Shown: in pieces, positions 132 through 14,682 of the stretch
Layout: each line of letters begins with the position of its first letter
How positions within the stretch are numbered: the first letter of the stretch is position 1
From: an uncultured virus (IMG/VR IMGVR_UViG_3300000301_000027)
Taxonomy: Duplodnaviria; Heunggongvirae; Uroviricota; Caudoviricetes; Crassvirales
Strand: one strand, 5' to 3'
IMG/VR virus record: IMGVR_UViG_3300000301_000027
Length of the DNA stretch: 64,000 bases
Notes under the pieces: model-generated
The model's database searches: none
Seen by the model: only the letters and a program-made list of their open reading frames with translations
What the model was told of the DNA's origin: nothing
Program-made: the position numbers and the translations under genes

Positions 132-1109
132 ATGTTAATTGGTAAACCTCTAACAACAGGAAATAAAGATGAATTAAAGTTATTATTTTATTTCTTAGGA
201 GAATTACCAGTAAACCAATTAATCAACAGTCCTCTAAGGGAAGATAATCATCCTTCATTTTATATCTATTATAATCCTGATGGTAAAATTTATTATAAAG
301 ATTTTGCTAGTGGAGAATATGGAGATATAGTTTCATTAATTCAATCTTTTTTACAATTGCCTACATTAGCAGATGCTTCAGAATTAATTTCTAAAACAGA
401 TGTAAAATGTGAATCTAACATAGCTTGTCATAGACTTAATTACACACCAAAAGAGAAAGAATATGAAATTAAAATAAGAATTAGAGATCTTAACTTAGAG
501 GATATTGAATATTGGGAAACTTATGGAGTAGATCATAAAAGATTAACAGAGTTTGGGGTTTATCCAATTTCACATTATTATTTAATTGATGGAGAATATA
601 ATCAATTATTTAGCACAAAAAACTATTGTTATGCATATACAGAATATTATTCAAAATTTTATTATAAAATATACAGACCTTATAGTAAAAGTGCTAAATG
701 GACTTCTAATATTCCTTTCAGTATTTGGGATTTGTATAATTATCTTCCTATTTCTGGAGATGTTGTAATTATTACCAAGAGTAGAAAAGATTCTATGTGT
801 ATCATGTCTAATAGTAGTTATCCTTCTGTTAACATGCAAAGTGAAACTGGAAATCCTTCTAAAGAAAAAATCAATGATCTAAAGAAAAGATTTAAAAATG
901 TTTTTATATGGTATGATAATGACTTTAACAAATCTCATAATTGGGGAAGAATGTATGCAACTGAGATTGCAAAGGCTCATAACTTAATTCAAGTAGAAAT
1001 ACCTGATGGTTTTGAATCTAAAGATATCTCAGACTTCCATAGAGACTTTGGAAAAACTGTTACTAAAGAATTAATTAAAGAACTTATAGAAAATGGAAAA
1101 CAAGTATAA
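132..1109 (+). CDS. DNA primase (DnaG-like, TOPRIM)
   Basis: N-terminal SPLREDNHPSF...YKDFASGEYGD (primase Zn-ribbon-like region); TOPRIM-like IITKSRKD and IWYDND; C-terminal SKDISDF. Confidence 0.8.
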   Translation: MLIGKPLTTGNKDELKLLFYFLGELPVNQLINSPLREDNHPSFYIYYNPDGKIYYKDFASGEYGDIVSLIQSFLQLPTLADASELISKTDVKCESNIACHRLNYTPKEKEYEIKIRIRDLNLEDIEYWETYGVDHKRLTEFGVYPISHYYLIDGEYNQLFSTKNYCYAYTEYYSKFYYKIYRPYSKSAKWTSNIPFSIWDLYNYLPISGDVVIITKSRKDSMCIMSNSSYPSVNMQSETGNPSKEKINDLKKRFKNVFIWYDNDFNKSHNWGRMYATEIAKAHNLIQVEIPDGFESKDISDFHRDFGKTVTKELIKELIENGKQV

Positions 1110-1491
1110 AGTAGCTGTATATGGCTCTTTAAGAAAAGGTCTATATAATCATTATTTAATGTCTCATTCAGACTTTATTAAAACTGTTAGTGTAGAAGTT
1201 CCTTTTAAAATGATTTCTATGTCAGATAGATTTCCTGCACTAATACCTACAAAAGAAAATAATCTGGTAGTATTTGAACTGTATAAAGTAGATGACAAGA
1301 CAGCAAGAAATTTAGATATCTTAGAAGGATATCCTGATTTTTATTCTAAAAAATATATTAAAATTGAAGATGAAGACTATCTAGTTTATTATCTATCTCC
1401 TCTAAAAATCACAAATGAGGAAGAAGTTGTAGAAAGTGGAGATTGGACAGAATTTAAACATAAAAAATTAACAACAAATAAAGAATCATGA
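1093..1491 (+). CDS. gamma-glutamylcyclotransferase (AIG2-like)
   Basis: VAVYGSLRKG..NH, LDILEGYP and SGDW motifs. Confidence 0.9.
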   Translation: MENKYKVAVYGSLRKGLYNHYLMSHSDFIKTVSVEVPFKMISMSDRFPALIPTKENNLVVFELYKVDDKTARNLDILEGYPDFYSKKYIKIEDEDYLVYYLSPLKITNEEEVVESGDWTEFKHKKLTTNKES

Positions 1492-2315
1492 GTTTATTTA
1501 CATCTCTTATTGGAGTTTCTAATAAAGGAACTAATTATTATTATACCACAAGTCCTTGTTGGGGAGCTTTTAATTCTTCTCTTAATACTAAATTACAAAC
1601 AGAAGGAGAAAAATATCAGTTTGTTAAAGTAGGAATCTTTACAGATGGATCTAAATTGTGTCTTACTAATAACACTTTCACTCCTAAGAAAGATATTGAA
1701 AAGTATCTTAATTATATAGGTGAAATTATGGGATGTCCATTAGTAAAATTTGAAGATTATCAAACTTGTTATGACTATCTTAGTTATGTTTCAAATAGCC
1801 CAGGTAAATTAGGAAAAGGAGATAAATCTGTAGAAAAATTTATGCAAGAGAATCCAAAAAATACTTTAAATGGATATCAAGCTACTTTTGATATTAGTAA
1901 ACCTATGGAATTATCTTCTGAAGCAAGACAATTGTTTTTCAAACATTTTGGACCATTAGTAAGAATGAGTTATGAAAACACATATAATCCTATTCTTAAT
2001 AGTGTATTGTCATATGAAAAGACTAAACCTTTTCTCTTTAAACATTTTACCTTCTATGAACTTTTATATTTAGAAGCTGTTAAAAGAGGTCTTACTGGAC
2101 AAGGTCATAGTGCTTGGCCTAGTAATTGTGAGCTTCCAAGTGTTAAAAGCTTTTTAGAAAAGATAAGAAGTAAATCTATACCTTCTAGTATGTTTAATTG
2201 TTTTCCTACAATTAAAAGTACAGAATTAGCTTCTGCAATATCAAAAATTATAGACATTAAAGATGAAAAGACTTTATTAGAAAAACTTTTACAATTAAAT
2301 ACATCTAAGAAATGA
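1488..2315 (+). CDS. hypothetical protein in ligase cluster
   Basis: 275 aa ORF with ATGA overlaps to both neighbours; no motif recognised. Confidence 0.75.
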   Translation: MSLFTSLIGVSNKGTNYYYTTSPCWGAFNSSLNTKLQTEGEKYQFVKVGIFTDGSKLCLTNNTFTPKKDIEKYLNYIGEIMGCPLVKFEDYQTCYDYLSYVSNSPGKLGKGDKSVEKFMQENPKNTLNGYQATFDISKPMELSSEARQLFFKHFGPLVRMSYENTYNPILNSVLSYEKTKPFLFKHFTFYELLYLEAVKRGLTGQGHSAWPSNCELPSVKSFLEKIRSKSIPSSMFNCFPTIKSTELASAISKIIDIKDEKTLLEKLLQLNTSKK

Positions 2316-2965
2316 ATATTTATATAGCTGGAGACTATGGAGTAGGATATGCTTACTGGTTATTAGATTTTTATAAAGAAGCTCTTATTACTAGAAATAT
2401 TCTAGAAGCAGATCTAATAATGTTTACTGGTGGAGCAGATATTAGTCCTTCAATATATGGAGAGAAAATCTCTAGAACATATTGGGGAAATGAACATAGA
2501 GATGAAGTTGAAATTGAAGTCTTTAAGAAAGCAGTAGAATTAGATATTCCAATGATAGGAATATGTAGAGGACTACAATTAATTTGTGGTTTATGTGGTG
2601 GAAGAGTTATTCAAGATGTATCTAATCATGCAGGATGCTCTCATAATATCACTTTTAAAGATGGATTTCAATGTATAACCACTTCTTTACATCATCAAAT
2701 GGTATATCCTTTTGAATTACCAGAAGAGAATTATAGTATTGAAGCATGGAGTACTGAAAGAAGATCTACTAAGTATATTAATGGAGAAGATAAACAATAT
2801 TCACAAATTCCTCCAGTAGAGCCTGAAGTAGTATTATTTTTTAAGGATAAACATAACAATCCTGTAAAATGTTTAGGAATCCAAGGACATCCTGAAATGA
2901 TGAAAATTGGAGAATTTCATAAAAGATTAATTCAACTTATTGACAATAACTTATTAAACAAATAA
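2312..2965 (+). CDS. class I glutamine amidotransferase / peptidase C26 family
   Basis: FTGGADISP, GICRGLQ (nucleophile Cys), SLHHQ, GIQGHPE (His-x-Glu). Confidence 0.9.
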   Translation: MNIYIAGDYGVGYAYWLLDFYKEALITRNILEADLIMFTGGADISPSIYGEKISRTYWGNEHRDEVEIEVFKKAVELDIPMIGICRGLQLICGLCGGRVIQDVSNHAGCSHNITFKDGFQCITTSLHHQMVYPFELPEENYSIEAWSTERRSTKYINGEDKQYSQIPPVEPEVVLFFKDKHNNPVKCLGIQGHPEMMKIGEFHKRLIQLIDNNLLNK

Positions 2966-2967
2966 AT

Positions 2968-3969
2968 ATGGAAAAAGTAGTAATTTTGTGTGGATTAGGT
3001 GGTAGACCTTCAATGAAAAAAGTATTTGCAGAAGTAAAAAATCCAAATGCTTATCTAGTTATTAGAAAAGAATTAAAAAAATCTAAAGGATATATCTTTG
3101 AAGTGTATTCTAAAGATGAGAATGGTAATATTACCATGACAAAAACAAAAAATATAGACTCTTTATTAGATAAATCTTATTTAATTAAATGGGGAAATAG
3201 AATTCAAGTAGATGATTTAGCAAATGTTGTTTACAATAATTCTTCTGCAGTAAAGAATGCTTCAGTAAAGAGTCTAGCTAGAAAACTATTTGCTGAGAAT
3301 GAGATTCCTTGTCCATTAAATATTACTCCTCAAACAGATAGATCTAAAGTTGTATTTCCTATTATTGGAAGACCTTTACTTCATCATCAAGGTAAAAACT
3401 TTTATACCTTTAATACATGGGAAGAATTTTTAGCTCACTATAATGTTCATAAGAAAGATCACTATTACAGTAATTTTGTTCCTAAAGTTAAAGAATTTAG
3501 AGCTCATGTAGCTCATAGTAAAATTCTTGCTTTGCTAGAGAAACCTAGACCAGAAGATCCTAATCAAATAGTATGGAATCATGCTCAAAATGCAGAAGCA
3601 TGGACAGTTATTGGATGGGATGATTATGGAAAATTTGGAAATCTTAGAGAAGGTGCTGAACCTACTAAGAATGATCTTAGATTAGCTAGAGCTTGTGTAG
3701 GAGCTCTTAATGCTTTAGGTCTAGATTTTGGAGCTGTTGATGTTGTAGTGACAGAAGATGGTTCTCCATATGTATTAGAAGTAAATACAGCACCTGAGTT
3801 ATCTAATTCAGAATATGCAGCAGCTAAATATTCTAAATATTTTGATTGGATTGGAGCTTATAATTTAGAAGAAGGTGAAGATAATAAAAGAGAACACTGG
3901 TCTTCTTTAGAATATATGAAATCTAAATCGTTCTCTTGGAAAGAAATTAATTTTAGACAGAATGACTAG
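2968..3969 (+). CDS. ATP-grasp amide/peptide ligase
   Basis: FPIIGRP, KEFRAHV, LGLDFGAVDV and YVLEVNTAP (ExN) motifs. Confidence 0.88.
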   Translation: MEKVVILCGLGGRPSMKKVFAEVKNPNAYLVIRKELKKSKGYIFEVYSKDENGNITMTKTKNIDSLLDKSYLIKWGNRIQVDDLANVVYNNSSAVKNASVKSLARKLFAENEIPCPLNITPQTDRSKVVFPIIGRPLLHHQGKNFYTFNTWEEFLAHYNVHKKDHYYSNFVPKVKEFRAHVAHSKILALLEKPRPEDPNQIVWNHAQNAEAWTVIGWDDYGKFGNLREGAEPTKNDLRLARACVGALNALGLDFGAVDVVVTEDGSPYVLEVNTAPELSNSEYAAAKYSKYFDWIGAYNLEEGEDNKREHWSSLEYMKSKSFSWKEINFRQND

Positions 3970-4531
3970 TAGAATTATTTCTTATAGAAATCCAGTAATA
4001 AGAAGAACAGATCTTACTATCTTTAACAGTTTAATGAGTTCAGATATTTATAATGGCCTGGATTTTATCCAGGTCTATACAAATACTTCTAGAGCTAAAA
4101 TGTTTTTAGATAAAGATTTATGTTCTCCTTTATATTATGATGGATATAAAGTAGAATATCTAAACTTAAAAGTCTATAATGAAGAAAATTGTGGACTAGA
4201 AGACACAATAAGTTTAGGTTATCATATGGATAATGGTGGTTTTAGAGGTATTACTAATATTGATAAATCTTTATTGACATATCAGCCTCAAATAGAATCA
4301 GATTATCCAGATTTAGTAGCTGTAGATACTAAGAGATTAAAGAAAGATTTTTGGAATCCTGATCCTAATTATTTGTATGATTTTATTTGTGCTTACAGAG
4401 AAATAGAAATTCCTTGGAAGACAGATCATAAAAAATTTTTATGTTATACAACATATGAAAAGGCAACAAAAGTTCTTATTGTAAGTGCAGTAAATCAAAA
4501 TTCACTTATTCAAAAAAAAAGATTAATTTAA
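3962..4531 (+). CDS. hypothetical protein in ligase cluster
   Basis: 189 aa ORF, tightly packed; no motif recognised. Confidence 0.7.
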   Translation: MTSRIISYRNPVIRRTDLTIFNSLMSSDIYNGLDFIQVYTNTSRAKMFLDKDLCSPLYYDGYKVEYLNLKVYNEENCGLEDTISLGYHMDNGGFRGITNIDKSLLTYQPQIESDYPDLVAVDTKRLKKDFWNPDPNYLYDFICAYREIEIPWKTDHKKFLCYTTYEKATKVLIVSAVNQNSLIQKKRLI

Positions 4532-4532
4532 T

Positions 4533-5261
4533 ATGATTTTACAAGTTATTAAAGATGTTACTCCTTTATCAGCAGGTATGTTAGTTTCTGCTTTGAGTAG
4601 CTATAAATATTCTCAAGAAGCAGATATCTTCAATAGATTAACACCAGCACCTTTTGAAGAATCTAATGTTGTTAGAGTAAATGGTGTATTAGGAACTCTT
4701 CCAAAAGAAAATTTTAAAATTTGTACAGTAGAAATTACTAATCCTAAACATCCTTTATATAAGAAAAAGTTTGAAATATCTTCTATTATTATGGAAGATC
4801 TTAAAACTAGACAGACATTTGAATTTGTAAATGGTGTATTAGATCCATTATCTATAAAAAGTATTGTGGTAGATACAGGAGAAAGAAAAGTAGAATTATC
4901 TCTTGGAGATACTCAACTGTCTTTTATAGATAATGCTGAAATTGAAGAATTTAAAGCTTATCTGAGATATGTTGATAGAGAAGAATATGAAGAAACTTTT
5001 TCTAGAGAATGGGAAGTTGATGAAGTTGAAACTGAAGAAGACAAAAAAATAGCAGAAGAAAAAGTCTATTTTTCTCATAATACAGGAACAATGACCTTGG
5101 AAAGAGGAACTTTATATGAAGTTATTAAATTCATGAAAAAGAATCCAGATACTGGAGAATATTTTGAAGTTCCTCAATCTCAAGCTAGAGTTGCTCAGGT
5201 ATTAGCAAATGGAAATTTTGTAACTGTATTATTAAGAAATGGTAATATTATAAGAAAATAA
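4533..5261 (+). CDS. hypothetical protein in ligase cluster
   Basis: 242 aa ORF with an acidic linker (EEYEETFSREWEVDEVETEEDKK); no motif recognised. Confidence 0.7.
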   Translation: MILQVIKDVTPLSAGMLVSALSSYKYSQEADIFNRLTPAPFEESNVVRVNGVLGTLPKENFKICTVEITNPKHPLYKKKFEISSIIMEDLKTRQTFEFVNGVLDPLSIKSIVVDTGERKVELSLGDTQLSFIDNAEIEEFKAYLRYVDREEYEETFSREWEVDEVETEEDKKIAEEKVYFSHNTGTMTLERGTLYEVIKFMKKNPDTGEYFEVPQSQARVAQVLANGNFVTVLLRNGNIIRK

Positions 5262-5263
5262 CT

Positions 5264-6082
5264 ATGAAAAGAGTAGATAACATCTTAATTGGATCTGATC
5301 CAGAATTATTTATTTATAACAAGGAAAAAGCAGAGATTGTCTCTGCAATTCCTTTTATTCCTGGTACTAAAGATGCTCCTTATATTATTGGAGATAAAGG
5401 ATATGCTTTACAAACAGATAATATTCTAGCAGAATTTAATATTCCTCCTACTAATAATGTGGATGAATTTGTAGAGCACATGAATTTTATGAAGGGATAT
5501 ATTCAAGAGCATCTAAATAAAATAGATCCTAATCTAACATTATTGCATCTACCTGATGGGCATTTAAAAGAAGAATATTTACAACATCCACAAGCAAAAG
5601 AAATTGGATGTTCTGAAGATTATAATGCTTGGAAAGATGGAGAAGTTAATCCTAAACCAGCAGAATTTCCAGGAACATTGAGGACTGTGGGAAATCATTT
5701 GCATATTGGATATAAAGATCCTGTAGCCCCATTAAATATTATTATTGTTAAATTTATGGATTTATTCTTGGGAGTTCCTTCAGTTATTATTGAACCTAAG
5801 AATGAAAGAAGACAAGTGTATGGTTCAGCTGGATCTTTTAGACATTGTAGATATGGCTGTGAATATAGATGTCTAAGTGGATATTTCTTAAAAGATGATA
5901 ATCTACTAAGATGGGCTTTTAACAATACTCTTAAAGCTATTGAAGAAGTAAATAAATATTTAAATGACGATGAAGATTCTATTGATATAGATGTATTAAA
6001 AGATGAAGTCTTAGCAGCTATGGGAGGGAATGTAGAAGTAGCTAAACAGCTTGTAGAGACATTTAATATTCCTATGGTTTAA
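5264..6082 (+). CDS. phiEco32-like COOH-NH2 ligase (glutamine synthetase-like fold)
   Basis: IGSDPELF, QTDNILAEFN, IGCSEDYNAW, LRTVGNHLHIG, RRQVYGSAGSFR, GCEYRCLS. Confidence 0.88.
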   Translation: MKRVDNILIGSDPELFIYNKEKAEIVSAIPFIPGTKDAPYIIGDKGYALQTDNILAEFNIPPTNNVDEFVEHMNFMKGYIQEHLNKIDPNLTLLHLPDGHLKEEYLQHPQAKEIGCSEDYNAWKDGEVNPKPAEFPGTLRTVGNHLHIGYKDPVAPLNIIIVKFMDLFLGVPSVIIEPKNERRQVYGSAGSFRHCRYGCEYRCLSGYFLKDDNLLRWAFNNTLKAIEEVNKYLNDDEDSIDIDVLKDEVLAAMGGNVEVAKQLVETFNIPMV

Positions 6083-6099
6083 TTATTTAAAATAATATT

Positions 6100-7905
6100 A
6101 TGTGTGGACTTTTTGGTTATATTGGAAAAGATAATAAAAGATTTAGTTGGGATAAGTTTAATGTATTAGGACTTTTTAATGATTCTAGAGGTGGTGATTC
6201 TTGTGGAAGGTATTTACTAGGAAGAGTTCTTTATGGAGTAGAAAAGAAAAAACTTTATAGAGATTTAGTTTTATCTTATAAAAATGATTCTGTATTTAAA
6301 GAAAATAATGTTATTTTAGGACATTGTAGAAAAGCTACTGTAGGTGCTCATACAGAAGCTAATGCTCAACCCATAGTATTATTAAATGAGTCTTTAACAG
6401 AAGAACAAAAAAAACAAGAAAATGTTTTAACAGAAGATTTTGTAATGATTCATAATGGTACACTCCAGAATCATGAAGAATTAGCTGAAAAATATGGTAT
6501 CAAAGAAGTTAAAGGTGAAACTGATTCTAAAATTCTAGCTAAACTAATTAAAAAAGAAGGATTTAAAATTTTAACTGAGTATATTGGTGCAGCTGCTATA
6601 GTTATCTATGATATTAGAGAAAAGATTTCTAGAGGAGTTGATGTAGTATATATTTTTAGAGGAAAATCTAAAGCTTATAATACTTCAACAACTTCAGATG
6701 AAGAGAGACCTTTATTCTTGTATAATATAGATGAAGATTATTGGTATTTTTCTTCTTTAGAAGAATCTTTATCATTTATAGATAATTCTAAAGATGATCA
6801 AGAAAGAATAGCTCCTGTAGAACCTAATACTTTATATAAATTTGAAAATGGAAAACTTGTAAGTAAAACTGTTTATGATAGGAGTGAATGTCTTCAAAAG
6901 AAACCTTATGTATCCACTTATACTGGTCATAATCACAATGCTTATGGTTATGATTATTATAGCTATGGAAGTTATGGTGATGATTATGAAGATGATGTTG
7001 CTTATCAGAGATATTGGGAGAGAGAGTCTGAAAGATATAAAGAAGGAAACAAATTTAATACTAAGAAGGAAGATAAAAAGATTCCAGTCTTAATAGTTCC
7101 TTCTAAAACTAAATTTGATAGTGAGATAGATAAAGAATCTATTGAAGGTTACTATGGTAGTGAGAATATTTTATTTGCTAGAGGTAGATATTATCATAAG
7201 AAACAATTGCTCAATGGAGTATATAATTGTTCTCCTTTAGGATATATAACTACAAGTAAATATACTTCAGATTATAAAGTATACTTTATAGATGGCATAT
7301 TAATTCAACCTCACTGCTATAAAATGGCTAAACAAATTTATACCTTAGCAGGAAAAGTGGATTATATTACACCTTTTATTGCTGAAAATTATCTATATCT
7401 TGGAGAAAATACTTTCACTAGATATGATTTCAAAGTAAAAGGAAATTTATTTGCAACAGGCTATTTTAGTCCTTTATTTTCTTTAAGAAGTTATTTAATT
7501 GTTAAGGGAATTAGTGAGTTTTATAAGACTTTTAATACTAAAACAGATTTTAATGATATAGGTAAGAGAGTAGGTATGTCTCATTACTATAGTAACTTTA
7601 AATCTGATAGAACAAATGTTTTAAGCCCTGAATGGTTAAGAACTGATTTCACTCAACTTTCTGAATGCATCAAATATTATTTTGGTGATCTAGGTTGGGA
7701 AGAATTTAAAGAAGATGTAAGGAACAATTATGAGGATTTATTATTAGCTCTTAAAAGTGAAAGTTTTGCACAAGTAGAACTATGTAAACAACAATTTTTG
7801 ATGTTTGTACAAGAATGTCAAGATATTACTGGACTTTCTGAATTAATTAAAGAAGCTAATGAGATTATTGAAGATTTAACTAAAACTTTAAAAACACTGG
7901 ATTAA
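6100..7905 (+). CDS. class II (Ntn) glutamine amidotransferase with long C-terminal extension
   Basis: Starts MCGLFG; RGGDSCG, GHCRKAT, NAQP, HNGTL, ETDS motifs. Confidence 0.9.
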   Translation: MCGLFGYIGKDNKRFSWDKFNVLGLFNDSRGGDSCGRYLLGRVLYGVEKKKLYRDLVLSYKNDSVFKENNVILGHCRKATVGAHTEANAQPIVLLNESLTEEQKKQENVLTEDFVMIHNGTLQNHEELAEKYGIKEVKGETDSKILAKLIKKEGFKILTEYIGAAAIVIYDIREKISRGVDVVYIFRGKSKAYNTSTTSDEERPLFLYNIDEDYWYFSSLEESLSFIDNSKDDQERIAPVEPNTLYKFENGKLVSKTVYDRSECLQKKPYVSTYTGHNHNAYGYDYYSYGSYGDDYEDDVAYQRYWERESERYKEGNKFNTKKEDKKIPVLIVPSKTKFDSEIDKESIEGYYGSENILFARGRYYHKKQLLNGVYNCSPLGYITTSKYTSDYKVYFIDGILIQPHCYKMAKQIYTLAGKVDYITPFIAENYLYLGENTFTRYDFKVKGNLFATGYFSPLFSLRSYLIVKGISEFYKTFNTKTDFNDIGKRVGMSHYYSNFKSDRTNVLSPEWLRTDFTQLSECIKYYFGDLGWEEFKEDVRNNYEDLLLALKSESFAQVELCKQQFLMFVQECQDITGLSELIKEANEIIEDLTKTLKTLD

Positions 7906-7908
7906 TTT

Positions 7909-9312
7909 ATGTTTAAGAATGATTTTAATGTAGAAGAAGGAGTTCATTATTTCTTAACTCAAACTATTCCTAGCAGAAGTAGATATTATGATTTTGAGAA
8001 AAAAGAGATGAGAAGTTCTACTTCTTCTCTTATTTATGGAGTTGTAAATTTTGATCCTCTATCTCAACAATATTATTATGGTTTCTTTAGTAGAAATTAT
8101 GCTAAAAATGCTTCTGTAAACATTCTTGGAAATGTAGTTACTGTATTTGATAAGAAATATTTAAAAGAAGTTGGATTCTTGGAAGTTGATCCAGATATGT
8201 ATATTAATCCTAGAAATCTTATCTATAAATACAATGGAAAGCTTAGTATGGGAAATAATTATAAAACTCCTGTTAGAAATAGAAAATATCCTTGGATGTA
8301 TGATTTCCCAAATAACTATGGAGCTAAATTTCTATTAGAAGATTTCAAAAGGTATCATTCTGACAATTACATTCCTAATAGAACAGGTGTATTTAACCTT
8401 CCAAATTTAACTTTTGGAATAGAATTTGAAACATGCTCTGGTTCAGTACCACAATCAGAATGTGCTAGATTAGGATTAATTCCTTTAAAAGATGGTTCAA
8501 TAACAGGAAATGAATATGCTACAATTCCTCATAAAGGAAAAGAAGGTATTGGTGTATTACATGAAACTTGTGAAGTATTACAAAATTATTGTGATATTGA
8601 CCATCAATGTTCTCTTCATGTTCATGTAGGAGTTCCTTCTGTAGATAAAACACTTGTTGTTGCAGCATATCATTATTTTAAAACACTAGAACCTCAAATT
8701 TTAGCTATGTTTCCATCAATGATGACTGCATCCTCTTCTTTTAAGAAAGGAGATAAAGATTATTGTAAAAAACTAGCTAAAGATGCTTGTGATAGTAGTC
8801 TTAGTGTAGAAAAACAATTTAAACAGTTGTTTGATATGTATGCTGAAACTCCAGGTTTTGTATTTGAAGGATTTGGAGCAAATCATCCACATGATAGAGA
8901 TGGTAATAGAAAATGGGAAGTGCATGCTAGATATAAATGGGTAAATCTTGTAAATCTTATTTTTGGTGGAGCAAAAACTATTGAATTTAGAATTCATACT
9001 CCAACATTAAATAAGTATAAAGTAATTCCTTGGGTATATATCTGTAATTCCCTAGTGTGGTACTTGCTAAATCATCAGGATGAAATTATTAAGAGTGCTT
9101 CTAGTGGTAAACTTAAAGTAGATCTTAATTCTATTATTTCTAGTTGTTTTAAGGATAGAACAATTGTAGATTATTTATTGTCTTATATTTCCCATAGAAT
9201 GAAAATGGTAGTACAACATCAAATATCTTATGGAGATAGATGTGGCTTCATTGAAATTCTAGATGATTTTGCTTATTCATATGATTATAAACAAATTGAA
9301 TTAGTAAAATAA
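7909..9312 (+). CDS. putative amidoligase (COOH-NH2 ligase superfamily)
   Basis: TFGIEFE, DGSITGNEY, CSLHVHVG, RYKWVNL, KTIEFRIH. Confidence 0.85.
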   Translation: MFKNDFNVEEGVHYFLTQTIPSRSRYYDFEKKEMRSSTSSLIYGVVNFDPLSQQYYYGFFSRNYAKNASVNILGNVVTVFDKKYLKEVGFLEVDPDMYINPRNLIYKYNGKLSMGNNYKTPVRNRKYPWMYDFPNNYGAKFLLEDFKRYHSDNYIPNRTGVFNLPNLTFGIEFETCSGSVPQSECARLGLIPLKDGSITGNEYATIPHKGKEGIGVLHETCEVLQNYCDIDHQCSLHVHVGVPSVDKTLVVAAYHYFKTLEPQILAMFPSMMTASSSFKKGDKDYCKKLAKDACDSSLSVEKQFKQLFDMYAETPGFVFEGFGANHPHDRDGNRKWEVHARYKWVNLVNLIFGGAKTIEFRIHTPTLNKYKVIPWVYICNSLVWYLLNHQDEIIKSASSGKLKVDLNSIISSCFKDRTIVDYLLSYISHRMKMVVQHQISYGDRCGFIEILDDFAYSYDYKQIELVK

Positions 9313-9711
9313 ATGGAAATTTTTATACCAGGTAATGTTCCTAGTAGCAAAAATTCTAGAATGATGACAAAGAGTGGGCTTTTAATTAAGTCTCCTCTTT
9401 GTTTTAAATATGAGAAAGCTACAAAGGATATTTTTGTTGAAAAGTCAAAAGAGTTTAGAGAATATGTAGGAGAAATAGACAAACCTTTGTTTATTAGACT
9501 TCATTTTGTTAGGGATAGTAAAAGAAGATGTGATTTTCATAATCTAACCCAATTTATTGCAGATTTACTAGTTAAAAATGGATGGATTGAAGATGATAAT
9601 ATGAATCAAGTTTTCTTTGTCCCTTATAAAATTGAAGGAAAATGGTATTCTGTTGATAAGGAGAATTGTGGTGTTTGGATAAAAGTAGATCAATGGAAAA
9701 TTTCAGATTAA
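9313..9711 (+). CDS. RusA-like Holliday junction resolvase
   Basis: IPGNVPSSKN, RRCDFHNL, DLLVKNGWIEDDN pattern. Confidence 0.75.
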   Translation: MEIFIPGNVPSSKNSRMMTKSGLLIKSPLCFKYEKATKDIFVEKSKEFREYVGEIDKPLFIRLHFVRDSKRRCDFHNLTQFIADLLVKNGWIEDDNMNQVFFVPYKIEGKWYSVDKENCGVWIKVDQWKISD

Positions 9712-10727
9712 GTTGTAGTGAACAAGAATTTAGAGAAACTAAGGCATTATCTTATTCTAAGATAGCATCTTATGATAAAGATGGTCCTATTTCTTTAATA
9801 ACAAAGAAAGATCTTGATGGTAAATCTTACATCATATTTGGTAAATTAGTAGATGATATGTTATTATCTCCTCAAAATTTATACAAATATAAAATTAATA
9901 ATTATAATGGAGAATTACCTTCTGGTAGTATTTCTGAAATTATTAATAAATGTGTAGATTTTATCAATAAAACAGGAGAACAGTTAACAGATGAGATTAT
10001 ACTGGAATTCTTTGCACAAAAAGATTTTTATAAAACATGGAAGCCTGCAACTAAGGTAGCAGCTGTATGGAAATATAAAGATTATTTAGATTTTATTTTG
10101 CAGAATAAAGATTCTATTTTAATAACTCCATTTATGTGGACAACTGCAGAGAAAATTGTAGAAACTATTAAAACTTCTCCAAAAACTCAACAGTGGTTTA
10201 ACTTGTTAGAAGGACAAGAAGGATTTAATCAAGTAGATCTTATTACTGATTATAATGGATCTAAAGTTAAAGGTGCATTTGATAGACTAGTAGTGGATCA
10301 TGTTAATAAAACTTTCCAGATAATAGATTTAAAAACTGGAAGTGTTAAATCAGATGAATTTGTAGATCAATTCTGGAAATTCAGGTATTGGATTCAAGCT
10401 ACTCTATATTATAAAATGCTTGAAGAGATTATAAAAGATGATGGTCAATATCAAGATTATGAAATCTTAGATTTTGTTTTTGTTTATATGCCTTCAACAG
10501 GAGCAACAATTCCTACTGTATTAACTGTAGAAAAAGATAGAATTTCTGCATTTGAAAATGGTTTTTATATAGGAAGATCTGAATATAAACAAAAAGGACT
10601 TAAACAACTAATAAAGGAAATTGAATGGCATTATGAGTCTCAAATTTTTGATGTTAGTTATGATTTCATAAATAAAGAAGGTTGTTATATAATAAATGAT
10701 AAACAAGTAAGAGGAGAAGATGAATAG
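9693..10727 (+). CDS. PD-(D/E)xK exonuclease (RecE/Exo VIII/Cas4-like)
   Basis: LSYSKI, FGKLVD, KGAFDRL, IIDLKT, YWIQATLY. ATG at 9693 preferred over the GTG at 9666. Confidence 0.8.
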   Translation: MENFRLSCSEQEFRETKALSYSKIASYDKDGPISLITKKDLDGKSYIIFGKLVDDMLLSPQNLYKYKINNYNGELPSGSISEIINKCVDFINKTGEQLTDEIILEFFAQKDFYKTWKPATKVAAVWKYKDYLDFILQNKDSILITPFMWTTAEKIVETIKTSPKTQQWFNLLEGQEGFNQVDLITDYNGSKVKGAFDRLVVDHVNKTFQIIDLKTGSVKSDEFVDQFWKFRYWIQATLYYKMLEEIIKDDGQYQDYEILDFVFVYMPSTGATIPTVLTVEKDRISAFENGFYIGRSEYKQKGLKQLIKEIEWHYESQIFDVSYDFINKEGCYIINDKQVRGEDE

Positions 10728-11250
10728 TGCAGCTAGAAAATTATTATTACCATTATTAGCAACAAAAGTAAAAATACAATTTCCAGAATTATTAACTAAA
10801 GTAACATATGTAGGTTCTTATCTACTTTTGCATTATAAGTTTGATTCTAGTAATGCTTTTTTAAAATATGAAGATTATTTAACTAACCATGAATTATTTA
10901 AGAAACATCTTGATAATGGTAATGGTGTGATTTATTCTTTTGATATGCCTAGAGAATTTATTAGAGAAATTAATCTATTTCATAAAGATAGAATAGAAGA
11001 ATTCTCTGATGATGCTAAGAATATTATCTTAAAAGAATATAAACCTAAAAAGGATTTAGATTTTCTTAAATTAAAATATATCTGGACTACAGATGAAAAT
11101 GAAAAAAATAAAATCAGAGCAAGTTTTTATGTAGTACCTTCTGATTTAGACAAAATTAAAATAGATCTTACTGAAGAGAAGTTTAATTATCTTAGAGATA
11201 TGGATCTATCTTTTGATGAAAATATTAGAAAAAAACTAAATTTTAATTGA
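10720..11250 (+). CDS. hypothetical protein
   Basis: 176 aa ORF coupled to both neighbours. Confidence 0.7.
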   Translation: MNSAARKLLLPLLATKVKIQFPELLTKVTYVGSYLLLHYKFDSSNAFLKYEDYLTNHELFKKHLDNGNGVIYSFDMPREFIREINLFHKDRIEEFSDDAKNIILKEYKPKKDLDFLKLKYIWTTDENEKNKIRASFYVVPSDLDKIKIDLTEEKFNYLRDMDLSFDENIRKKLNFN

Positions 11251-11251
11251 T

Positions 11252-13878
11252 ATGAAGAAAACAGCTGAAGAGTGTAGTGTGAAATATTTTGAAGGAGATG
11301 AATTAGCAGCTAAAGTATTTTTATCTAAATATGCAGGTGAAGATGAAAAAACACCTGATAATATGCATCAGAGGTTAGCTTATAATATTGCTCTTATAGA
11401 AAGAAAGTATCAAAAAGAATTAGTAAATAAAAAAATAAATATAGATAAACTTTCTGATCTAGGTAGAAATTATGTAAGAGATCTATGTGAGTCTAATGAT
11501 TATCAAATCAGAGATAAATGGTTTCAATTGTTTAAAAATTTTAAATATATTGTACCAGGAGGATCTATTATGGCATCTCTAGGTAAAGCTAATAATGTCT
11601 CTCTAGCTAATTGTTTTGGTATTGAAGGACCAAAAGATAAGATGGAGAGTATTATGGATAAAGGCAAAGAGATGGCTTATTTATTTATGAGAAGGGGTGG
11701 TGTTGGAACACATCTTGATCATTTAAGACCTAATGGAGCTATGGTAAATAATGCTTCTAAAACAAGTACAGGAGCTCCTAGTTTTATGGAATTATATTCT
11801 ACAGATGTTAAAACTATAGGTCAAAATGGAAGAAGAGGAGCATTAATGTTATGTATGTCAGATATTCATCCAGATATATCTGAATTTGTTACAATAAAAC
11901 AAGATTTAACTAAAGTTACAGGAGCTAATATTTCTGTGAAATTATGTAGAAATTTAGTAACAGCTGCTCAAAAAAATGAAGATTGGTTACTAAAATGGCC
12001 TATTAATTCAAGATTAGGAGAATTTATTAATTGGAATTCTAAAGATTTTGAATATAATAAACTATATTATGCAGGAAAATCTTATTTTAAAAAGGTAAAA
12101 GCAAATGAATTGTTAGATTTAATTATTGATTGTGCTTGGAAAACAGCTGAGCCTGGAATATTACTATGGGATAATATTATTAATTATGATCCTGCTTCTG
12201 TATATCCTAGATTAAAAGCTGTTACAACTAATCCATGTGGAGAGCAACCACTAGGAGATGCTGATTCATGTAGATTATCTCATATTAATCTTTTATCATT
12301 TGTAAAAAATCCTTTTACTAATGAAGCCTCATTTGATTATGAATTATTTAGAAAAATAGCATATGAACATGTAATCTTTCTAGATGATATTATTGATCTA
12401 GAATGTAAAAATATTGAAAATATAATCAATCATTCAGATGCTAAAAGTGAAATAGAACTTTGGAAAAGAGTTCTTGATGCAGCTAGAAAAGGTAGAAGAA
12501 TTGGATGTGGATTCACAGCTTTAGGAGATACTATTGCTGCAATGAATCTATCATTTAAAGATTCTCATTATCTAGTAGAATCTATTATGGAAACTAAGTT
12601 TAAAGCTGAATTAGAAGCTAGTATAGATTTAGCTTATCTTAGAGGAACTTTCTTAGATTATGATTATAATTTAGAATATCCTGAAGATAAACCTAGTAAT
12701 CAATGGTATGAATTCTTGATAAATAATTATCCTAAACTAGTTTCTAGAATGAAAGAACTAGGAAGAAGAAATGTTTCATTAAGCACTGTTGCTCCTGTAG
12801 GATCAGGATCATTATTAACTCAAACTACTAGTGGTATAGAACCAGTATTTAAAACATTGTATGATAGAAGAGTTAAAGTAAATGCTTTTGATGAAAAATA
12901 TGATTTTATAGATCCTAATACTAAAGAGAAATTTAAAGTATTTACAGTTGCTCATAAAGGATTCCAGAAATTCTGTGAAATAACAACTGGAAAGAAGTTT
13001 AATGAACTATCTAAGAGTATGATTAATACTCTCTTTAAATCTTCTCCTTATTATAATAATGAGGCAGCTGATATTTCTTGGCAAACAAGATTAGAAATTC
13101 AAGCTATTGTACAAAAATATACTACCAGTTNNNNNNNNNNNNNNNNNNNNNNNNNNNNNNNNNNNNNNNNNNNNNNNNNNNNNNNNNNNNNNNNNNNNNN
13201 NNNNNNNNNNNNNNNNNNAGCACAACTATTAATTTAGCCTCAGATGTAAGTAAAGATGTTGTAAAACAAATTTATCTCAATGCTTATAAAATGGGACTTA
13301 AAGGAGTTACTGTCTATAGAGATGGTAGTAGAAGTGGTGTTCTAGTATCTACAGATAATAAAACTAAAGATCCTTCAAGAAAGGCACCAAAGAGACCTTC
13401 TGAGCTACTTTCTCATATTCATAATATGAAAGTTCAAGGAAAGAATTATCTTTGTGCATTAGGCTTCTATGAAGGTAAACCATATGAAATATTTGTATGT
13501 CCTACACCAGAAGATATTAAATTACCAGATATTGGTAAAATTGTTAAAATTAAAAAAGGATATTATCAACTACAAGATCAAGAAGGAAAAGTTATTATAG
13601 AGAACTTTGTAGATGTGATGGATGATCAATTAGAAATGATTACTAGAATTCTATCCATATCTATTAGAAGTGATGTTGGTTTTAACTTTTTAATTGATCA
13701 ATTAAAGAAAAGTAAAGGTGAGTTAACAGCTTTTCATAAAGTATTAGCAAGAACAATTGCTAAGTATGTTGATAATAATGCTAAAAGTGGAGAAAATTGT
13801 CCTATGTGTGGAGATAAATTAGTCTTCAATAATGGGTGTCTTTTATGTAAATCTTGTTCATTTTCCAAATGCAGCTAA
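11252..13878 (+). CDS. nrdJ: class II (B12-dependent) ribonucleotide reductase; one gene interrupted by an N gap
   Basis: SLANC, RRGGVG, RRGALM, AEPG, TNPCGEQ, TVAPVGS, SGIEP, then QKYTTS[gap]STTINL, GLKGVTVYRDGSR and a C-terminal CPMC..CKSC ribbon. No small-subunit gene is nearby. Confidence 0.88.
13131..13218. other. assembly gap (88 N) inside RNR
   Basis: Run of N. Confidence 0.99.
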
Positions 13879-13905
13879 ATTTTGTAAAAAAAATTTTACT
13901 TATCA

Positions 13906-13937
13906 TTTGGAACATCCATTATTATTTTGTATCTTTG
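13906..13937 (+). promoter_or_regulatory. Bacteroidota-type primary-sigma promoter (-33 TTTG / -7 TAnnTTTG) for the HNH gene
   Basis: TTTG at 13906-13909, 20 nt spacer, TATCTTTG at 13930-13937. Confidence 0.75.
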
Positions 13938-13962
13938 TATAGATTTTGAAAAAATTAAAACT

Positions 13963-14682
13963 ATGCTAAGAGAAGATACAATTAAAAAATTTGATGAACT
14001 AAATTTAGTTGATTTGTATAATAGTGGAGAAACATTTACTTCATTAAGTAAAAAATATCATATATGGTATGGAACAGCTAAAGAATATTTAATTCAACAT
14101 GGAGTTAAAATTAGAGAAGATAAAAAGAGACCAGAACTTAGAGAAACTCCTCCAGTAGGACAAAAATTTGGACAATGGACTGTCATCTCAGATAAAATTA
14201 AGATAGGACATGATAGAAGTATAAACTGGGAAGTACAATGTGATTGTGGAAGAAAAACATTTAGAACTGCTTCTGCATTAAAAGCAGGATTAACTAAAAG
14301 ATGTAAGTCTTGTGCTAAAAGACCATTTCTTAGAAATGGTACACTTATAAATACTGTAGCTGCAAGTGCTTATAAAAGAGTGATAAATGGATTAAATAAA
14401 AGAAAAAAATTAAAAGGAATGGAATTTAATATTACTCCTGAATTTATTGACAATCTTTTATCTAAAAATCATTATTGTGCATTATCTGGGATAGATTTAT
14501 CTTTTGATGCTTCAAAACAAATGAGTTGTCAAAATTTATCTATAGATAGAATAGATTCTAATAAAGGATATACTATGGATAATATTCAACTAGTAGATAA
14601 AAGAATTAATTTAATGAAAGGAACATTATCTAATGAAGAATTTATTGATCTTTGTAAAAAGGTTGCAGAACATAACAAATAA
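13963..14682 (+). CDS. free-standing HNH/His-Me-finger homing endonuclease-like protein
   Basis: GQKFGQWTV..WEVQCDCG..CKSC N-terminal region; CALSG..SIDRIDSNKGYTMDNIQLV..INLMK. ATG at 13963 is used because the TTG at 13927 lies within the promoter. Confidence 0.8.
   Translation: MLREDTIKKFDELNLVDLYNSGETFTSLSKKYHIWYGTAKEYLIQHGVKIREDKKRPELRETPPVGQKFGQWTVISDKIKIGHDRSINWEVQCDCGRKTFRTASALKAGLTKRCKSCAKRPFLRNGTLINTVAASAYKRVINGLNKRKKLKGMEFNITPEFIDNLLSKNHYCALSGIDLSFDASKQMSCQNLSIDRIDSNKGYTMDNIQLVDKRINLMKGTLSNEEFIDLCKKVAEHNK

Follow-up and report, generated by a model that had tools for sequence, protein, structure and literature searches.

Why does a crAss-like phage carry three predicted amide-forming ligases, together with enzymes that would undo their work, in the midst of its replication genes? 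The question is raised by nine plus-strand open reading frames (ORFs) at positions 1093-9312 of a 64,000-nucleotide stretch from an uncultured virus (IMG/VR record IMGVR_UViG_3300000301_000027), analysed here at its full length and referred to as the window. In order, these ORFs encode a gamma-glutamyl(amine) cyclotransferase (GG), an unnamed protein (hA), a class I glutamine amidotransferase of the peptidase C26 type (G1), an ATP-grasp ligase (AG), two small proteins (unk189 and unk242), a phiEco32-type COOH-NH2 ligase (CN), an Ntn amidotransferase (G2) and an amidoligase (AL); three of the nine (hA, unk189 and unk242) have no Pfam or PHROG family. The block is flanked by a primase and a RusA-like resolvase, and by the ORF coordinates neighbouring genes either overlap by 4-17 nt or lie 0-17 nt apart. 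The original prediction for this locus had described nine tightly coupled genes from primase to resolvase, with these families in this order, and the coordinates and family matches agree with it. We conclude that this crAss-like cassette of the phiEco32 type probably encodes a cytoplasmic pathway that builds and trims a gamma-glutamyl adduct, with a small molecule rather than DNA as acceptor.

To evaluate the conservation of the block, we compared the window with 80 IMG/VR loci and four GenBank phages, 85 sources in all that carry the COOH-NH2 ligase. The IMG/VR loci are the best 80 of 177 stretches confirmed in an alignment-based scan, and the presence of each family was scored by iterative hidden Markov model searches. 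G2 was found in 82 of the 85 sources, AL in 83, AG in 76, GG in 61 and G1 in 49, counts that are lower bounds because contig ends cut some loci. All five core families lie within about 10 kb in 59 of the 85. The core genes are on one strand in every source (85/85), G2 adjoins AL in 79 out of 81, the window included, and hA lies immediately upstream of G1 in all 32 sources (32/32). Where a primase of the phrog_12622 family was found, it is at most two genes from the cassette in 30 of 35 sources. By gene content and order, the grouping is far beyond chance. The original prediction had named a lack of joint conservation in other phages as grounds against it, and the block does hold across the 85 sources.

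Two gene orders recur. In crAss-like phages the order is primase, GGACT (the GG family), ATP-grasp, hA once or twice, C26, CN, G2 and AL. In podophages (phiEco32, PaP3 and marine contigs) an ORF of about 300 aa is followed by CN, a phrog_4877 protein of about 220 aa, AL, G2, ATP-grasp, GGACT and the primase/helicase. The accessory genes differ by lineage: hA occurs in crAss-like phages and on jumbo-size contigs, other ORFs occur in podophages, and unk189 and unk242 are found only in the group that includes the window. Two loci with a podophage-type cassette contain tandem paralogs of 92-104 aa inside it, four in L078 (10791-11933) and two in L079 (10367-10947), whose N-terminal motif is SH3-like and whose acidic C-terminal motif is conserved.

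Two cassette enzymes belong to families that remove gamma-glutamyl groups. GG (1093..1491, plus strand, 132 aa), of the AIG2/GGACT family, matches PF06094 (1.1e-17, 65.1 bits against a cut-off of 22.8) and phrog_2520 (1.5e-23), and in BLASTP it matches PaP3 orf42 (8.7e-12), phi14:2 gp048 (2e-9) and phiEco32 gp77 (2e-6). G1 (2312..2965, plus strand, 217 aa) resembles class I amidotransferases of the gamma-glutamyl hydrolase type, with matches to PF07722 (2e-18, 67.4 bits), PF00117 (6.6e-11, 42.7 bits) and phrog_7218 (6.4e-29). Its Cys-His-Glu triad is kept: across 32 sequences Cys85, in the motif GICRG, and His193 are invariant and Glu195 is near-invariant. The curated families nearest to G1 are stand-alone gamma-glutamyl-amide hydrolases, at scores far under their cut-offs; the weak NCBIfam matches are to gamma-glutamyl-CDP-amidate hydrolase (9.6e-9, 35.6 bits against an equivalog cut-off of 250) and PuuD (1.1e-5, 25 bits against 266). 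In locus L048 the two activities appear in one protein of 353 aa, with a GGACT domain at residues 4-119 and a C26 domain at 151-252. As a domain arrangement, this fusion is a Rosetta-stone link that joins two predicted gamma-glutamyl-cleaving enzymes.

The ligases are equally recognisable. CN (5264..6082, plus strand, 272 aa) is a COOH-NH2 ligase of type 2, with the GCS2/glutamine synthetase (GS) fold of carboxylate-amine ligases; it matches PF14395 (9.3e-11, 41.9 bits against a cut-off of 25) and phrog_3815 (5.8e-62), and 34 positions are invariant over the copies from crAss-like phages (cr108_1 included), phi14:2, PaP3 and phiEco32. AL (7909..9312, plus strand, 467 aa) is a GS-like Amidoligase_2 extended at its N-terminus by about 165 aa; it matches PF12224 over residues 208-382 (4.7e-8, 33.6 bits against a cut-off of 22) and phrog_2443 (4.1e-18). 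The E-x-E, H-x-H and E-x-R motifs of AL are retained, and G170, E172, E174, D195, S197, E202, H237, H239, E359 and R361 are invariant in 33 sequences. PDB sequence-profile searches gave no match for CN or AL, and fused, longer forms of the two were not found, a negative that the search tool itself grades as weak evidence. AG (2968..3969, plus strand, 333 aa) is RimK/R2K-like, with matches to phrog_2599 (5.6e-23) and to the RimK family TIGR00768 (4.9e-9); all Pfam ATP-grasp models score it under their cut-offs, the best being R2K_3 (22.4 bits against 26.3). Its BLASTP matches include phi14:2 gp049 (5e-11), PaP3 orf43 (3e-10) and phiEco32 gp80 (2e-5).

G2 (6100..7905, plus strand, 601 aa) is a glutamine amidotransferase of the Ntn class (class II) whose C-terminal part is non-canonical. 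It matches PF13522 (2.3e-13, 50.7 bits against a cut-off of 27), and its profile matches to the solved structures of PurF (2.8e-20) and GlmS (1.7e-18) are restricted to the glutaminase domain, approximately residues 1-240. Over 30 sequences C2 is near-invariant, and R30/G31, H75, R77, N119/G120 and D142/S143 vary little or not at all. The glutaminase domain is followed by a linker and a weakly conserved block, with no recognisable synthase domain. The linker, at residues ~270-330 (window 6900-7100), is of low complexity and rich in Tyr, Asp and Gly, and the C-terminal block has repeated F/Y-x-x-G-x-Y-like motifs. On the evidence of these alignments, the six recognisable cassette enzymes retain their catalytic residues and look active.

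From these assignments we propose that the cassette builds, and then trims, a glutamate- or glutamine-type amide adduct on an acceptor supplied by the host. AG, CN and AL would each form one amide bond, in an ATP-dependent manner and through an acyl-phosphate. G2 would most likely be the partner of AL, delivering ammonia from glutamine or cleaving glutamine or a gamma-glutamyl amide; this pairing is suggested because G2 has no synthase or acceptor domain and nearly always adjoins AL. G1, with its obligatory neighbour hA, and GGACT would strip gamma-glutamyl groups, so that glutamate would serve as a removable handle or an erasable mark. Butirosin synthesis is a known case of glutamate used as a removable handle. 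Building followed by trimming is suggested by the GGACT-C26 fusion, the families nearest to the C26 enzyme and the pairing of G2 with AL. The cassette lies among replication genes, and action in the cytoplasm is probable since no export feature turned up, none having been sought. The original prediction had seen a reversible write/erase system here, which fits the three ligases, the three glutamine or gamma-glutamyl cleavers and the L048 fusion. The pairing of addition with removal stands; as to reversibility, a one-way pathway fits just as well, and a reversible mark and a removable biosynthetic handle are equally good readings.

The acceptor is somewhat more likely a small cytoplasmic molecule than anything else. 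Within that class a precursor of the peptidoglycan stem peptide is a possible candidate, and an amine, polyamine or cofactor a more doubtful one. A protein acceptor seems unlikely, and DNA or a nucleotide more unlikely still. The original prediction had stated that the product was yet to be determined, and our literature search is in accord, having found no reported product. In their available parts, papers of 2023-2025 cite just the predictions of 2009 and 2013, and the published ideas comprise cell-wall modification, superinfection exclusion and secondary metabolites (PMC10580990, PMC11945000, PMC11706807). Nothing on the cassette is found in the available portions of PMC12210895, PMC10855318 and bioRxiv 10.64898/2026.02.22.706922. 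The paper on a Poseidoniales virus (PMC11706807, available in part) was considered as an argument against the cell-wall idea and set aside as unusable, the host of that virus being uncertain.

hA (1488..2315, plus strand, 275 aa), the partner of the C26 enzyme, is assigned by its profiles to a large unnamed phage family and is not an orphan. Of 1.84 billion cluster representatives, 582 belong to the family at E<=1e-3, and hA aligns with the family of two paralogous hypothetical proteins of cr108_1 (hhalign probability 82%, E 1e-5). All 16 sampled members (16/16) have no Pfam match at E<=0.001 and no PHROG match. C24, R159 and E163 are the sole invariant residues, both in an alignment of 22 sequences and in one of 42. 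An independent locus scan started from hA, using the sub-family alignment A6, since the broader alignment A5 was too diverse, found 19 loci. In 18 of these hA is followed by G1-CN-G2-AL, with a second hA-G1 pair upstream in two and several genes split by inserts; the nineteenth stops at a contig end. Eleven of the 19 lie on contigs of 128-353 kb. Contigs in this size range, that of jumbo phages (L085-L094, L097, L098 and L101), bear the block hA-C26-CN-G2-AL with no recognisable ATP-grasp or GGACT gene close by. Most of them, though not L091 or L093, have a protein of 319-375 aa without Pfam match upstream of hA, and L097 and L098 have two hA-C26 pairs each.

An AlphaFold2 model of hA was obtained with a predicted local distance difference test score (pLDDT) of 86.2 and a predicted template modelling score of 0.87. 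Searched with Foldseek against the predicted viral structures of BFVD, it matches two cr108_1 proteins, one of 329 aa (E 5.2e-5) and one of 300 aa (E 7.1e-3), as well as two proteins of another crAss-like virus. Foldseek against the PDB gave nothing at E<0.5, and a PDB sequence-profile search gave no match under E 0.8. The longest structural matches, by VIA-align, are to PafA (Z 5.1; root-mean-square deviation, rmsd, 4.5 over 178 residues), Dop (Z 5.1, rmsd 4.3, 167 residues), gamma-glutamylcysteine synthetase (Z 4.0-4.3, the best with rmsd 5.5 over 181 residues) and GS (Z 4.0, rmsd 4.8, 159 residues), all below the noise line of Z 8. No profile similarity between hA and CN or AL was detected (hhalign probability at most 0.2%), and hA does not have the Glu/His metal-site pattern that CN and AL retain. 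Foldseek matches to the ~300-aa proteins of LUZ24-like phages (probability 0.41-0.54) are only a lead. A predicted complex of hA and G1 scored 0.01, which counts neither way.

The two remaining proteins, unk189 (3962..4531, plus strand, 189 aa) and unk242 (4533..5261, plus strand, 242 aa), are additions of one clade and stand outside the general machine. They occur only in the window and 8-9 close IMG/VR relatives, 8 in the case of unk189. In 5.8 billion clusters unk242 has six homologs, five of them full-length and 60-99% identical, the sixth being a 172-aa fragment that covers 40% of the query. Relative to L006/L007, identity is 48% for unk189 and 64% for unk242 compared with 83% for the ligase CN; on these alignments both diverge faster than the cassette enzymes. 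Neither resembles the other or any of 17 accessory families (hhalign probability at most 2.9%). The AlphaFold2 model of unk189 is all-beta and poor (pLDDT 57.6). The VIA-align matches of unk189, the best at Z 3.7 and several near Z 3 to cell-wall-binding domains of the SH3b type, were given no weight, the model being too weak. ESM Atlas matches for unk189, set aside likewise, were capsid-like leads of at most 0.84; for unk242 the ESM Atlas search found nothing.

A tblastn search found CN in 317 GenBank phage records. The commonest names are Pseudomonas (121), Escherichia (94), Vibrio (21), plain 'phage' (15) and Aeromonas (11), followed by Proteus (8), Salmonella (7), Cronobacter (6), Pseudoalteromonas (5) and Klebsiella (3). 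These ten name groups account for 291 of the 317 records, 276 named after Gram-negative genera and 15 only as 'phage'. Among 185,579 prokaryotic genomes, one per species, a pattern-based scan of limited sensitivity found 10 CN loci, all on metagenome-assembled or draft contigs of 1-104 kb; within the sensitivity of that scan, so low a number makes CN essentially a phage gene. With 317 GenBank records and 177 IMG/VR stretches, and being nearly absent from cells, the cassette is among the most widespread phage-only enzyme systems.

In several relatives the cassette genes are interrupted by mobile elements. In L008, L009 and L010 (approximately 10450-11575) a 1.1-kb insert divides CN after about residue 143; the insert carries the gene for a LAGLIDADG endonuclease (PF14528, 1.4e-14) and has no Rfam intron match. 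Group I introns interrupt the AL gene in L088 (13548-13832, 88.3 bits) and L094 (13396-13845, 50.8 bits), and L033, L094 and L097 each have a split C26 gene.

The window is also marked by an almost complete loss of CG dinucleotides, and the original prediction had raised the possibility that this depletion and the cassette go together. Only four CG are observed where 1231 are expected (observed/expected ratio, o/e, 0.003), at 3929, 5968, 28612 and 54662. The GC dinucleotide is at o/e 1.06 and TG/CA, with no excess, at 1.01. In 17 long genes none of 11,777 codons is a CGN arginine codon, against 383 AGA and 24 AGG. The close clade (L002-L010) has CpG o/e of 0-0.005, with L010 at 0.087, and other cassette-bearing loci range from 0.12 to 1.18. 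The suggested link does not hold: because the purge is confined to the window and its close clade among cassette-bearing loci, the cassette and the purge are independent. Measured against a Markov model, other words are under-represented in the window as well. Among 4-mers the deficit is strongest for TAAG/CTTA (z -10.6), and CATG (112 against 173, z -5.5), GGATCC (3 against 12.3) and GGTACC (0 against 4.1) are low.

Several points weigh against a gamma-glutamyl pathway on a small acceptor. The literature search found no substrate, product or activity for any cassette copy, and the odds given to the acceptors are inferred, drawing also on old predictions (Iyer 2009, Hardies 2013). No cassette protein, in the window or in the sampled relatives, has a peptidoglycan-related Pfam domain, and the sensitivity of the searches may be part of the reason why the cassette appears confined to phages with Gram-negative hosts. 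Three further points would fit a DNA target or an anti-restriction role. The cassette lies beside a primase or primase-helicase in three unrelated phage lineages (crAss-like phages, phiEco32 and PaP3), introns or homing endonucleases invade CN, G1 and AL of relatives, as they often do in DNA-metabolism genes, and viral contigs from viromes carry amidoligase and amidotransferase genes alongside those for thymidine hypermodification, according to the available part of PMC8989533. The cassette could attach an adduct of the amino-acid or amide kind to the DNA of the phage or to a nucleotide precursor, or otherwise defeat restriction, and be the missing anti-restriction pathway of phiEco32-group phages. 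We regard this as improbable. Gordonclarkvirinae do resist restriction-modification systems with no known modification pathway, as far as the available text of PMC11990801 goes, and our literature search found no paper that pairs Kuravirus with the amidoligase; the authors of PMC11990801, in the same partial text, point instead to a dCTP deaminase and a nucleotidyltransferase. Eleven restriction enzymes out of 16 digested the DNA of the cassette-bearing LUZ24-like phage U17 (PMC11945000, in part). Native Nanopore sequencing of a relative of UFV-P2 gave only a nick-associated motif (PMC11780129, in part), where the cassette is known from UFV-P2 and unchecked in the relative. The genome avoids CG, CATG and GGATCC as if unprotected, and this avoidance counts against a DNA target because it is expected of nuclease-exposed DNA. 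Pfam searches of 42 window ORFs, a set that leaves out five minus-strand ORFs of >1000 aa and the third or so of the genome outside the 64-kb window, found none of the thymidine hypermodification set of Lee et al. 2021 (dUMP hydroxymethylase or TET/JBP as the 5-hmdU source, 5-HMUDK kinase, aGPT-Pplase), nor any other hydroxymethylase or DpdA-type gene; only ThyX, dUTPase and a dNMP-kinase-like domain were present. An anti-restriction role in the specific form of a glutamate or amide adduct on DNA or a deoxynucleotide precursor, or of a disarmed nuclease-based defence, is distinctly improbable. If true, it would explain both the restriction resistance of the phiEco32 group (PMC11990801, in part) and the travelling of the block with primase genes in three unrelated lineages.

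Two other explanations concern proteins and coincidence. Like RimK or PafA/Dop, the cassette might attach glutamate or a short peptide as a tag to a protein of the host or the phage, and GGACT, G1 and G2 would then erase the tag or mature it by deamidation. AG is indeed closest to the RimK family, and GGACT-type enzymes cleave epsilon-(gamma-glutamyl)-lysine, which we counted in favour of tagging. The R2K clade has been proposed to modify proteins in phage-host conflicts (PMC4431377, in part). The resemblance of hA to PafA, Dop and GS-fold or glutamate-cysteine ligase-fold proteins lies below the noise line and points the same way only weakly; that hA does not share the metal-site pattern of CN and AL counts against tagging. 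No conserved small tag or carrier protein was found in or beside the cassettes and no fusion to a protein-binding domain was seen; protein tagging is considered unlikely. The idea that these are independent auxiliary metabolic genes which came together in the early region by chance, and not one pathway, is very improbable indeed. The variation of accessory genes between lineages would suit it. It is contradicted by the joint occurrence of five core families in 59 of 85 sources, many of them cut by contig ends, by the single strand and the fixed G2-AL and hA-G1 neighbours, by the GGACT-C26 fusion, and by the persistence of the grouping among phages whose ligases share just 30-45% identity.

The surroundings of the cassette are those of a crAss-like phage with a G+C content of 28% in the window. 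Pfam crAss_CARG1, CrAss_Ring_1 and CrAss_Ring_2 are found on the minus-strand structural arm. To the left, the DnaG-type primase (132..1109, plus strand; phrog_12622, 4.5e-47) overlaps GG by 17 nt at its 3' end; to the right, the RusA-like Holliday junction resolvase (9313..9711, plus strand) matches phrog_1682 (5.5e-13), with a Pfam RusA score of 20.2 bits, under the cut-off of 22.8. Downstream of RusA are genes for a PD-(D/E)XK exonuclease, ribonucleotide reductase, family A DNA polymerase, dUTPase, ThyX and a dNMP-kinase-like protein, which place the cassette within a replication and nucleotide module. The ribonucleotide reductase gene (11252-14682) includes a run of N and is interrupted, with an HNH/endonuclease VII-type ORF at 13927-14682 between its parts (phrog_3322, 3.8e-24). 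Contigs from RNA libraries skip this element, joining 13882 to 14679 (X16, X19) or 13785 to 14679 (X17, X18); these could represent a spliced intron or strains without the intron, and no intron was found in the element at the Rfam gathering score. At least 20 public sequencing runs from 13 studies, among the matches listed, hold the stretch or part of it, many of them labelled pig gut metagenome. Contigs of four RNA-library runs span most of the cassette at a depth of 1-9, which is no proof of transcription because such libraries may contain DNA. A sigma-70 promoter scan was uninformative (76 sites against 74.9 expected).

The analysis defines the hA family for the first time, with a confident model, and adds a gene fusion joining two gamma-glutamyl removers and the independence of the cassette from the CG purge. 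It also defines the crAss-like form of the cassette as a fixed five-gene block, hA-G1-CN-G2-AL. Cultured carriers on laboratory hosts exist, namely phiEco32-group phages of the BASEL collection, LUZ24-like phages and Cellulophaga phage phi14:2, and these make the function answerable at the bench.

How does the block compare with known systems? A phage amidoligase cassette was reportedly predicted by Iyer et al. in Mol Biosyst in 2009. Its type example is gp77-gp88 of phiEco32 (Kuravirus), which shares with the window CN, AL, a class II amidotransferase, ATP-grasp and GGACT in co-directional genes beside a primase/helicase, as the original prediction had held in linking the two. BLASTP of the window proteins against phiEco32 gives 7.7e-32 for CN, 2e-6 for GG and 2e-5 for AG. 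The order in phiEco32 is different (CN, phrog_4877 protein, AL, G2, AG, GG), no C26 enzyme is recognised there by Pfam, and the upstream gp87 and gp88 (phrog_13102 and phrog_13063) have no sequence relation to hA, unk189 or unk242. phiEco32 infects E. coli and has a podovirus virion of different architecture.

The nearest annotated record for CN is gp_22626-gp_22632 of the uncultured crAss-like phage cr108_1 (Steigviridae, Pipoluvirus). Here too the cassette follows the primase and contains ATP-grasp, hA, G1, CN, G2 and AL, with identities to the window of 43% for CN, 41% for G1, 35% for G2 and 32% for AL. In cr108_1 a pair of hA paralogs precedes G1 and the block lacks GGACT, whereas the window has one hA, its ATP-grasp gene shifted to after G1, and unk189 and unk242 in addition. 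CpG depletion in cr108_1 is ordinary (o/e 0.585), in contrast to that of the window. A minimal crAss-like cassette of five genes is found in the cultured Cellulophaga phage phi14:2 (Steigviridae, gp048-gp052), where the primase, GGACT, ATP-grasp, CN, G2 and AL share their order and one strand with the window, and the C26 enzyme, hA, unk189 and unk242 are missing.

Outside phages, gamma-glutamyl handle chemistry is known from PuuA/PuuD in putrescine catabolism, BtrJ/BtrG in butirosin synthesis and the gamma-glutamyl-CDP-amidate hydrolase Cj1417. In these pathways, as is proposed for the cassette, glutamate is attached by a ligase of the GS-like or ATP-grasp type and taken off again by an enzyme of the C26 or GGCT type. 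The cassette has no carrier protein, decarboxylase or oxidase such as those pathways possess, and by analogy the likeness is one of logic, not membership. With regard to amidation of the MurT/GatD type, Pfam detects no Mur-ligase domain in cassette proteins of the window or the sampled relatives. The window's copy is intact and slightly enlarged, a further member of a cassette known from sequence since 2009. Judged by its families, gene order and conserved residues, the block is the crAss-like version of the phiEco32-type cassette, with all of the features that define membership at the level of sequence.

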